Part shown: one piece after another, positions 9,001 to 12,000 of the stretch | Layout: each line of letters begins with the position of its first letter | Numbering within the stretch: the stretch's first letter is position 1 | IMG/VR virus record: IMGVR_UViG_3300015174_000009 | Source of the DNA: a virus | Lineage: Duplodnaviria; Heunggongvirae; Uroviricota; Caudoviricetes | DNA: 14,490 nt | Direction: 5' to 3' (one strand) | Position numbers: made by a program

Positions 9001-12000
9001 GGTTCCACATTCGCCATGCTCCGCATCACGTTTCTTTTTCTGACCTGCCGGACGTCGCACCGTGATGTACTCCGCCTTTCCCAGGCGAACCAGCACCTCC
9101 GCACACGGCTGTGCCACATCACGGATATCCCCGGCCCGGGCATCATGCGTGCCCTGCAGATATCGGATCTTTGCCATAACCTGTTACGGGAGGCGCACGC
9201 CTCCCGTCCTCCTTATCAGACTCAGCCGCCGGACGCACTGCCGTAGTTCACTCCGGTGATCACCGCCACCGCCGCAGTACGGCGACGACGCCAGTTGATC
9301 CAGCGCTCCGCACGGATGGCCACGCTGCCTGTCTGGAACATGGAAACCAGCTCCACCGGGGACGGCGTGGTACTGTCGCCGGTCGGCTCAGACTGCATTT
9401 CCAGTGATGCCTCGCGGGACATATCCACTGCCACGCCGCCGTCATCCGCCAGATAAATATCCGGGGCATTCACCAGCACCAGCTGGTCACCCACGTACTG
9501 GGAGACAATCACCGGCAGCCCCTGGAAGGAGCCACCCAGCAGGGTCATGTCCGGGTATTCCTTCTGACCCAGCGCATTTTTACGCATGGACAGTGCCAGG
9601 GCATTGGTGCTGGACATCAGCCAGACCGCACCGGTGGGCTGCAGGTTTGCTGCCACAAACTGTCCAAACGCAGCCTCTGCATCCGCATCCGGGTTACCGG
9701 TTGATGCCGTGCCCTTCACATCATGGGTGATGGACGCCGGGGAGACATCTGCCACTGCGGCTTTTTTCGGGTCCACAAAGTCTGTATCCAGACGCGCCAC
9801 CACCGCTTCCGCCAGCGCATTACGGACCAGTGCATCAGCAGCCGGACTGGAAAAACGGATCAATTCTTCCGTCAGTACCGCAATGGCCGACACCTTCGCA
9901 TGACTGAAGGTGATGGATTCAAAATCAAACTTCGTCAGGGGTTTTGCCTTACCCTCACCCACCCAGCCGGCAGCACCGCCGGACACCTGGGCGTGCACAC
10001 GGATATTGAATGGCACCTGACGAAGTGCAGGGATCCCGCCCTGACCAAATCGCCCGATAATGGTCTGCGGACGCAGGTAATCAATAAAGTCCTGTGCGTA
10101 TTCCTGATATTCAGACAGGCTGCCTGCCCACTGCGGATCCGTGGTGGTCCCCGCGCCCACTGCCGATTTCAGGACATGATGCAGACGACTGTCATCCGGA
10201 TACTGACGACGGGCCACTTCCAGGGCTTCAGATCGGACGCCTTTAGCCGCAGCCAGCGATTTGGCAAAGCGGGCGAAGCCAATCCCCTTATCCAGTTTCT
10301 GCTCCACACGGATCACCGGCGCAGAAGCCACCGCGGCCACATTCCCGTTACCGGCCTGTTTCACCGGCTGCGCCGTGGCGGCCTTACCGGCTTCCAGTTC
10401 ACGCAGGCGCTTCAGGTGCGCATCCACCTGACGGATTTCCGCTGCGGTGTTGTCGTAATGCTCTTCCTCCTCCACATCCAGCGTGCGCCCTTCCTCTGCG
10501 GCTTTGGTCATGACCTCCTCAAGGGAGGCTGCCAGCGCTGCACGCTTGTTTTCAAAACTTTTAATCTGTTCGCCAATATTCATTATGGTCTTTTCCTTAT
10601 GAAAAACGGTTGTTGACTGTGCCGCAGCGCCGGCAGAAGATGCGATTTTCACCACCGGTTTCCGGTTGCCGGACGCGGCAGAAAACGGGCGGTCGTAAGA
10701 TTTAATGGTCCGGATGGTGCATTCCGCATTCGCGGGCACGGTGACGGCAGACACCTCCATCAGTTCCCAGCGCAGAAAATGCAGTCCGCCTCCGTCCAGA
10801 AAGGTGTATTCATGGGGACGGAAGCCCACGGACAGCCCCCTGACCAGCCCGGTCTTAATGGCCGCCCAGACCTCATCCAGCCGGGCAGCCAGTTGCGACG
10901 GCATATCCGGTACGGGCTTCACCAGTGTTGCCGTGATTTCCAGCCCTTCGCTGACCCGGCGCACCGTACACTGCCCCACCGGGCGGGAATGGTCATGCTG
11001 CCAGAGAAACGGGATCGCACTGCCAAACTCCGCGCCCTCCGGCTCCAGGATGTCACCATCCCGATCCGGAGAAGGCGTTGACGCAATCCCGGTGATCACC
11101 CGTTCATCCTCACTGAAGGATTTCACCGTCAGCAGGGAACAGGCCCGTTTAAGAGTCACATCAGCCTCCTGAAAATAAAAAAACCGCCGGAGCGGTTCGT
11201 GATGGTTACAGTGTGAACAGGGTTATATGAAAAAAACCGCATATTCTTTCTTTTTCGGTTCCGGGTTAAGGGACATCAGGGAGACCGCATTGAACAGCGC
11301 CATCAGCGGGTCAATTTTTCCCCGTCCACTGGCCTGTTTGGTGATAAGAATGGCGTTACCTTTAGGCTCCACCCGGGCATTGCCGACACACCAGGCCATC
11401 AGGGGCTGGTCACCATGCACCAGCACCCCTTCAGCCAGTTTGCGCTCGGTGGTTTTAATGGCCCCGCCCAGTTTCCAGCCCTGGCTTATCCCCACCACAA
11501 TTCCGTCGGGGATCCCGGCTTCCGCCAGTGAATCCAGAATCTGCCCCACCCCTGACGGGTCAATACCGATATGGTCCAGTAACTCAGCCTCATGAATGCG
11601 ACGCACATATTCCGCCACTTCCGCCGTGTCATCCCCGACACGCCGGACAATGGTCATATCTCCACAGGCAACAAGATCCTGAAACCGGGACGCCTCGCTC
11701 TTCCGTCGGACCACCGCGGTTTCATGCGCCCAGGCATGGCCCCAGCCCAGCCATTCGCGGGTCTCCCGGTCACGCCCAATCACATACATCCCCAGCAGAT
11801 CATCCAGCCCTCCGCCGTCAATCCCCACCGTCACCACATCAGCACGACGCAGGATATCGTCCAGGCTGATACAACGGCCCTGCTCTTCCCAGAAATCAGC
11901 CCCCGCCCAGCGGTCAGAGCGCAGGGCAAGACCAATTTCCACATTGGCGTGTTTTGACATGAACCCCCGGAATGTCTCTTCACCGGCTTCCCGGGCTTTA

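Follow-up and report, generated by a model that had tools for sequence, protein, structure and literature searches.

HK97 encodes its prohead protease (gp4) and its capsid protein (gp5) as two genes. In Microbacterium phages, one gene encodes a protease, a scaffold and an HK97-like capsid subunit (PMC7302621), and nested in-frame protease/scaffold genes have been described in lambda, HSV-1 (herpes simplex virus 1) and HFTV1 (bioRxiv 10.64898/2026.09.13.751334). The window analysed here, a whole stretch of 14,490 nucleotides from the IMG/VR virus record IMGVR_UViG_3300015174_000009 (Caudoviricetes), differs from HK97 in carrying both proteins in a single open reading frame (ORF) of 645 residues at 9222..11159. 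A preliminary description of the window had given this ORF with exact coordinates but no strand; it lies on the minus strand. The fusion gene itself is already known from long-tailed Shiga toxin prophages of E. coli and routinely annotated, and the fusion is old. What comparative analysis appears to add is a conserved nested start. We propose, with a probability of roughly 0.7, that the ORF is read from two in-frame starts, giving a 69-kDa protease-capsid fusion and a 48-kDa capsid precursor.

The full ORF comprises a prohead protease, a linker, a delta or scaffold-like region and an HK97-fold major capsid protein; phage 2851 and RefSeq E. coli both have it annotated as one coding sequence (CDS). 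It begins with GTG, 5 nt downstream of the Shine-Dalgarno (SD) sequence AGGAGG at 11165..11170 (minus strand), and encodes a full-length product of 69.0 kDa. An in-frame ATG at 10581..10583 (minus strand), the codon of Met193, is preceded by the SD-like motif TAAGGA at 10594..10599, whose GGA core ends 10 nt before the ATG. Initiation at this second site would yield a 453-residue, 48.2-kDa capsid precursor with a delta domain, encoded by the nested frame 9222..10583 (minus strand). In 11 fetched relatives the protease and the capsid protein are separate genes, and the capsid ATG aligns with Met193. The protease stop codon of these relatives falls at the capsid ATG, mostly overlapping it as ATGA. 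Their capsid proteins begin MNIAEQI(R) or MKTIIEQI, compared with M193-NIGEQI(K) in the window, and stand-alone capsid representatives start at query residue 193-194. A one-base frame change at the junction separates the split forms from the fused forms. A rough neighbour-joining tree of the capsid parts contained at least five changes between the fused and split states, which fits a one-base frame change toggling two nearly equivalent modes of expression.

The signals at the boundary were retained in the fused genes. Of the fetched genome loci, 38 contained fused ORFs, and 37 of the 40 fused ORFs surveyed were assessable for a start. All 37 carried a start codon at the boundary (35 ATG, one GTG and one TTG), with an SD-like motif 6-10 nt upstream. 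In 29 of these ORFs the motif measured 5 nt or more, compared with 2.5% of in-frame background positions. The Alphaproteobacterial fused genes and that of the Pseudomonas phage PAJU2 had near-perfect AAGGAG(G) or AGGAGG sequences at the internal start. These internal motifs were at least as strong as those of the split relatives, where the site is certainly the ribosome-binding site of the capsid gene. The SD nucleotides persisted while the encoded residues varied (K-G, K-E, Q-G, T-G) and the codon register differed.

A similar picture emerged within the enterobacteria, where Met193 was invariant among 18 fused homologues and the adjoining linker peptide was hypervariable with insertions and deletions. 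The codon of Gly189, which overlaps the SD-like motif, was GGA in 16 of 16 enterobacterial homologues. GGA accounts for 11% of the glycine codons in these homologues and for at most 22% at any other of 36 conserved glycine columns. When synonymous conservation was scanned along the whole ORF of 645 codons, the highest-scoring windows, roughly 20 in number, all fell at residues 157-210, a stretch that reaches from about 110 nt upstream of ATG193 to 50 nt beyond it. The site also coincided with the GC minimum of the gene (0.30 compared with about 0.60) and was among the 3% least-structured 41-nt windows. Across 35 fused ORFs, the median percentiles were 6% for structure and 2.4% for GC content. 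Taken together, the conservation, the alignment with the split relatives, the GC minimum and the low predicted structure indicate that Met193 is a maintained translation-initiation site. No sigma-70-like promoter was found inside or just upstream of the fusion ORF, which gives no support to transcription of the capsid part on its own mRNA from a promoter of this kind.

The domain arrangement of the ORF was examined with profile and structure searches. Both domains that the preliminary description had proposed to look for scored above the Pfam gathering cutoffs: Peptidase_S78 (PF04586) at residues 48-152 (E 2.4e-8, 34.7 bits against a cutoff of 21) and Phage_capsid (PF05065) at residues 386-635 (E 4e-14, 53.1 bits against 24.2). 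Among NCBIfam models, TIGR01554 (HK97 major capsid) matched residues 204-584 with 78.1 bits against a cutoff of 27.5. Position 3 of this profile aligned at residue 204, so the capsid homology begins with the delta domain right after residue 193. TIGR01543 (HK97 proheadase) matched residues 48-154 with 46.5 bits, short of the 59 bits set as its equivalog cutoff. Residues 1-639 matched PHROG 617 (E 1e-261), whose members are full-length fusions. The ORF has the architecture of NF045541 (scaf_prot_MCP2, a protease/major capsid fusion) but lies outside that specific family, which it matched only at residues 48-287 with 54 bits against a cutoff of 525. An AlphaFold2 model, built from 64 sequences with a mean predicted local distance difference test (pLDDT) score of 80, showed a β-rich domain at residues 9-143, disorder at residues 144-190, and the HK97 fold from about residue 342. 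Between the last two lay a helical hairpin at residues 195-262 (helices 195-223 and 229-262, pLDDT >90) and more helices at residues 293-330. Met193 was placed at the end of the disordered linker, immediately before the first delta helix. Pfam, NCBIfam, PHROG, AlphaFold2 and Foldseek together bore out the preliminary statement that protease, scaffold-like and HK97-fold capsid domains share one uninterrupted frame.

The protease domain (residues 9-143; 10731..11135, minus strand) is delimited by Pfam, NCBIfam, BLASTP to HK97 gp4 and the AlphaFold2 model, in which its pLDDT was 70-94. By BLASTP it was 29% identical to gp4 (E 4e-9). A profile-guided alignment paired His55 (10995-10997) and Ser110 (10830-10832) with H65 and S114 of gp4, and both residues were invariant in 59 diverse homologues. 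H65 and S114 are reportedly the catalytic residues of gp4. When the protease domain was modelled separately, the top eight matches in the PDB were herpesvirus proteases (assemblins), with probabilities of 0.54-0.99, weak E values of 5e-3 to 0.1 and template modelling (TM) scores of about 0.3. It is followed by a disordered linker of about 49 residues (residues 144-192; 10584..10730, minus strand), recognised by pLDDT <50, the alignments and the scan of synonymous conservation. The delta or scaffold-like region (residues 193-331; 10167..10583, minus strand), assigned from AlphaFold2 and TIGR01554, comprises the 195-262 hairpin and the 293-330 helices and ends at Lys331.

The C-terminal part, residues 332-645 (9225..10166, minus strand), is the predicted mature HK97-fold capsid protein of 33.1 kDa. 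In Foldseek searches it matched the solved capsid proteins of Bxb1, D3, HK97, T5 and a gene transfer agent (GTA) with E values of 5e-15 to 1e-9; the best were those of Bxb1, D3 and HK97 (5e-15 to 1e-10). A sequence search of the PDB recovered the Bxb1 capsid protein alone (E 0.0017); no structure has been solved for this family of fusions. When the capsid part was compared with HK97 gp5 by BLASTP, the match was not significant. A comparison with the single gp5 sequence by hhalign was co-linear but statistically weak (probability 0.2), and served for residue correspondence only. In a pairwise BLASTP alignment that was not significant overall, the segment TDPQWAGSL aligned locally with SDADSAGSL, the N-terminus of mature gp5. 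Lys331, a few residues upstream of this segment, was nearly invariant in 64 diverse sequences. The near-invariance of Lys331 and the nearby match to the mature HK97 N-terminus lead us to predict maturation cleavage near Lys331 and a mature coat protein of about 33 kDa starting at residues 332-337.

The residues of the HK97 chain-mail cross-link were not all retained in the capsid part. Of the HK97 triad K169/N356/E363, K169 is matched by K406 and E363 by E618, while the position of the Asn is taken by Gly611 (codon 9327-9329, minus strand). This position was Gly in the window and in all eight close E. coli relatives, and Asn in 133 other homologues, Salmonella and Enterobacter prophages among them. 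The correspondence of Gly611 to N356 rests on the motif match between FQTGSVAIRAER and FVKNMLTILCEER and on the statistically weak hhalign alignment. Covalent cross-linking of the capsid may have been lost in the E. coli lineage; the triad defines HK97 cross-linking and not the fold family.

From these features we infer the following scheme of internal initiation, co-assembly, subunit ratio and cleavage. Initiation at the GTG at 11159 would produce the 69-kDa protein, in which an S78 serine protease is joined through the flexible linker of about 49 residues to the delta/scaffold domain and the coat domain. No stop codon precedes Met193, so the protease would be made only as a fusion. The ATG at 10583, with its own SD motif in an AT-rich unstructured stretch, would direct synthesis of the 48-kDa delta-coat precursor, which would resemble a normal HK97-type capsid protein. 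This pair of products is suggested by the conservation of the internal start signals. The two would co-assemble through the delta and coat parts that they share, and each fusion subunit would bring one linker-tethered protease into the procapsid interior. The covalent tether would take the place of the C-terminal targeting tail of free HK97 gp4, in keeping with the absence of such a tail here. The protease dose would be set by how often initiation occurs at one start relative to the other. After assembly, the His55/Ser110 protease would remove the linker and the delta domain near Lys331, leaving the mature coat of about 33 kDa. The preliminary description had held that the capsid precursor carries its own protease and is self-processed. 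The fusion frame agrees with this, but as a statement about every subunit it is probably incomplete: the conserved start at Met193 most likely adds a protease-free precursor, so only a fraction of the subunits would carry the protease. It had also raised an internal start as a sign of two separate proteins. A conserved start signal is present at Met193, but the gene is not split in two, as no stop codon interrupts it.

Several points weigh against the two-product reading. The enterobacterial SD motifs are only of moderate strength: at -5.6 to -6.2 kcal/mol they rank at the 5th-16th percentile among in-frame positions, and the 10-nt spacer in the window is long. Because the sequences compared share ancestry, the counts do not represent independent events. 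The AT-richness at the site partly follows from the Lys/Asn-rich peptide encoded there. Some of the linker conservation could come from a protease cleavage site or a small RNA hairpin instead of a ribosome-binding site. On the protein side, the catalytic role of His55 and Ser110 is putative, and the fold match of the protease domain is weak (E 5e-3, TM about 0.3).

The moderate strength of the enterobacterial SD motif speaks for a single-product reading, that of the preliminary description, in which only the 645-residue polypeptide would be made. Each of the approximately 415 coat subunits would then bring its own protease and delta domain and be self-processed, and the ATG and SD at Met193 would be relics of a two-gene state or serve the protein. 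The ORF is uninterrupted and is one CDS in all annotations, and the protease-scaffold-capsid fusions of Microbacterium phages have been described as single genes (PMC7302621). Our own volume estimate, which was not computed with a tool, suggests that the space inside a T=7 procapsid could suffice for about 415 copies of a 21-kDa protease together with the delta domains. However, a relic is unlikely to have survived in the enterobacterial clade, where amino-acid identity is 61-78% and synonymous sites are saturated. The ATG is nevertheless invariant there, the GGA codon is kept in 16 of 16 sequences, and the strongest synonymous constraint of the gene falls in a hypervariable, indel-rich linker. 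The near-perfect SD sequences of the Alphaproteobacterial fused genes and PAJU2 also argue against relics. We consider a single product unlikely, and favor two products from the two starts.

The conserved nucleotides around residues 157-210 might alternatively serve another function at the RNA or DNA level, such as a regulatory hairpin, a ribosome pause for protease folding, or a recombination or packaging signal. SD-like motifs within genes are known to pause ribosomes. The constraint reaches about 110 nt upstream of the ATG, beyond what a ribosome-binding site needs. Two linker stretches were nearly devoid of synonymous variation in the 18 enterobacterial homologues: A-A-S-G at residues 161-164 (10671-10682, minus strand) and A-G-A-T/A-A at residues 176-180 (10621-10634, minus strand). 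The invariant codons of the latter could form a small candidate RNA hairpin, GCCG-GCGCTG-CGGC (10621..10634), about 40 nt upstream of ATG193, which takes the form GCUG-N6-CAGC in relatives. RNAalifold kept its four pairs in 17 of 17 sequences, with one compensatory change, from UA to CG, in the window. A long-range stem between the AASG and AGATA codons, noticed by eye, was not recovered by RNAalifold, which gave two small local hairpins only. Both stretches may act as RNA elements close to the internal start, or as sites cut by the protease. A pause site or an RNA element could explain some of the constraint. As a full account of the site, though, another nucleotide function seems quite improbable. 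It leaves unexplained an invariant Met codon exactly at the capsid start of the split relatives, the GTG and TTG that stand in place of ATG in two fused relatives, and the joint occurrence of a start codon, an SD motif at 6-10 nt and an unstructured AT-rich context. Moreover, the hairpin has just four pairs, one of them covarying, and the region contains no promoter-like site.

The gene is widely distributed. Its 1938 bases were 99.5-100% identical to genes of the Shiga toxin (Stx) phages 2851, YYZ-2008 and JLK-2012, and the BP-4795 gene was 98.2% identical. These genes are annotated as "major head protein/prohead protease" or similar, as one CDS and with the internal start unmentioned. Homologues of 644-648 residues with 73-78% identity occurred in Salmonella, Enterobacter, Klebsiella, Serratia and Pantoea, and co-linear full-length fused homologues with 32-51% identity occurred in Alpha- and Betaproteobacteria. 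The fused form is conserved at 32-78% identity over three proteobacterial classes, and fused-length homologues made up more than 100 clusters at 50% identity. Of 5426 complete E. coli genomes, 1255 carried the gene, and single genomes had as many as seven copies. An identical ORF was found in 93 phage records, inducible Stx phages among them. The fusion might in principle be an artefact, with two genes merged by a sequencing frameshift or in the pseudogene of a decayed prophage: a one-base frame change at the junction separates the split and fused forms, and defective prophages are common in E. coli. This is ruled out by the breadth of conservation, by the identical ORF in the 93 phage records and 1255 genomes, and by the annotation of the PAJU2 homologue as a structural protein. 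The evidence that the fusion ORF is a genuine gene, as opposed to a chance ORF, is strong. In the open-access literature we found no report of internal initiation in a protease-capsid fusion, and no report of the virion proteome of a 2851/BP-4795-type phage.

The neighboring genes share the minus strand and make up a phage head-and-tail module. Upstream of the fusion gene lie genes for an HNH endonuclease (13734-14099), the small terminase (12881-13444) and the large terminase (11223-12884). Downstream are a 73-residue ORF (8956-9177), which belongs to phrog_829, has no assigned function and is hypothetical in RefSeq, and the portal ORF (6749-9010). Head-tail connector and head-closure genes, tail genes and a tape-measure gene lie beyond the portal. 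The 73-residue ORF, which sits between the capsid and portal genes, overlaps the start of the portal ORF by 55 nt, and PAJU2 has two small ORFs at the same place. The order of large terminase, protease-capsid and portal was the same in all fetched relatives, fused or split. As the preliminary description had also noted, no separate scaffold gene was recognisable in the head module: between the large terminase and the head-tail connector there were only the fusion ORF, the 73-residue ORF and the portal ORF. At 11181-11198 (minus strand), downstream of the large terminase gene and ahead of the fusion gene's SD, a terminator-like GC-rich hairpin is followed by TTTTTATTTT. The HK97 head operon is annotated with similar putative terminators inside. 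The fusion ORF is the head-shell gene of a lambdoid prophage of the Pankowvirus type (phage 2851/BP-4795-like).

The portal ORF, with 753 residues, is a second in-frame fusion. Its first part, of about 410 residues, matched the PAJU2 portal at residues ~22-402 (39% identity, E 3e-91). Residues 516-748 matched PAJU2 ORF007, a separate gene after the portal (E 9e-22). Almost all fetched relatives had two overlapping ORFs in different frames here, the second beginning at Met455 of the window ORF (ATG at 7648). Met455 sits downstream of a G-rich stretch, and PHROG 8767 begins exactly at residue 455. The portal ORF may represent the same device of a fusion that keeps an internal start. Its length differed among relatives whose capsid genes are near-identical or identical, being 753 residues here and 859-861 residues in phage 2851 and E. 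coli strain 4/4. The portal ORFs compared for length were those at 8150-10729 in locus L001 and 7150-9735 in locus L002, with the C-terminal part at 6749-7650 in the window. This part contains protein-level repeats of the form P-x-P-x-DG-R/K-D/S ... DV and a weak CBM_5_12-like end. No tandem repeats were detected in its DNA; the repeats exist at the protein level only.

A broader account of the locus can be drawn from these observations, and we lean toward it with somewhat less assurance than toward the two products themselves. One frame with two starts would encode the whole shell program. The minor long product would deliver the protease at an ordinary coat position, with the initiation ratio setting its dose. 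Relatives would switch repeatedly, by one-base frame changes, to an ATGA-coupled two-gene form, and the portal gene appears to reuse the device, with the Met455 start retained.

A real nested start would have several implications. It would explain how a covalent protease-coat fusion can exist without each coat subunit bringing a protease, and what targets the protease when a C-terminal tail of the HK97 type is missing. It would also correct the annotation of a gene carried by about one quarter of complete E. coli genomes and by many Stx-converting phages, in which one CDS probably hides two products. Finally, it would provide a genetic handle on protease dosage in HK97-like assembly, through silent changes in the SD motif, changes of M193, or a one-base toggle that restores the stop codon.

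Among known systems, the closest are the Stx phages 2851, BP-4795, YYZ-2008, 1717 and JLK-2012 (Pankowvirus and relatives), which have the same gene, 98-100% identical over all 1938 bases and with no difference of substance, and the same neighbors: HNH endonuclease, small terminase, large terminase, fusion gene and portal. The preliminary description was also right that the arrangement is known from lambdoid prophages, as it is annotated in the Stx prophages 2851, BP-4795 and YYZ-2008. PAJU2 is more distant. Its ORF003 is 48% identical and co-linear over residues 1-642, and is recorded as a virion "structural protein; prohead protease fused capsid protein". The gene order of terminase, fusion, small ORFs and portal is shared, and ORF003 keeps an ATG at residue 197 with AGGAGG 8 nt upstream. 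However, the portal and the following ORF007 are separate in PAJU2, whereas the window has them fused.

HK97 shares the protease family, and its gp5 coat protein likewise has an N-terminal delta domain that acts as a scaffold, followed by the same HK97 fold. About 65 residues at the C-terminus of HK97 gp4 form its capsid-targeting tail, whereas the window protease lacks such a tail. The gene order in HK97 is terminase, portal, protease and capsid; in the window the portal follows the capsid gene (6749-12884). The "major capsid and protease fusion" genes of Actinobacteriophages (Microbacterium clusters EE and EL, Arthrobacter cluster AU) have the same one-gene architecture, but they come from other hosts and have no close sequence relationship to the window gene. 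No internal start was reported for them in the open-access texts consulted.

The nested genes of lambda (C/Nu3), HSV-1 (UL26/UL26.5) and HFTV1 (gp17/gp17.5) offer the nearest parallel in expression. Each makes a long protease product and a shorter, presumably more abundant in-frame product, and the shared C-terminal part directs co-assembly, as proposed for the window. Internal initiation has been demonstrated in these three systems, whereas for the window gene it is suggested by sequence comparison. The shared part is a free scaffold in lambda, HSV-1 and HFTV1; in the window it would be a scaffold domain together with the coat protein itself. If the nested start is real, the principle of lambda C/Nu3 and herpesvirus UL26/UL26.5 extends from free scaffolds to the coat protein.

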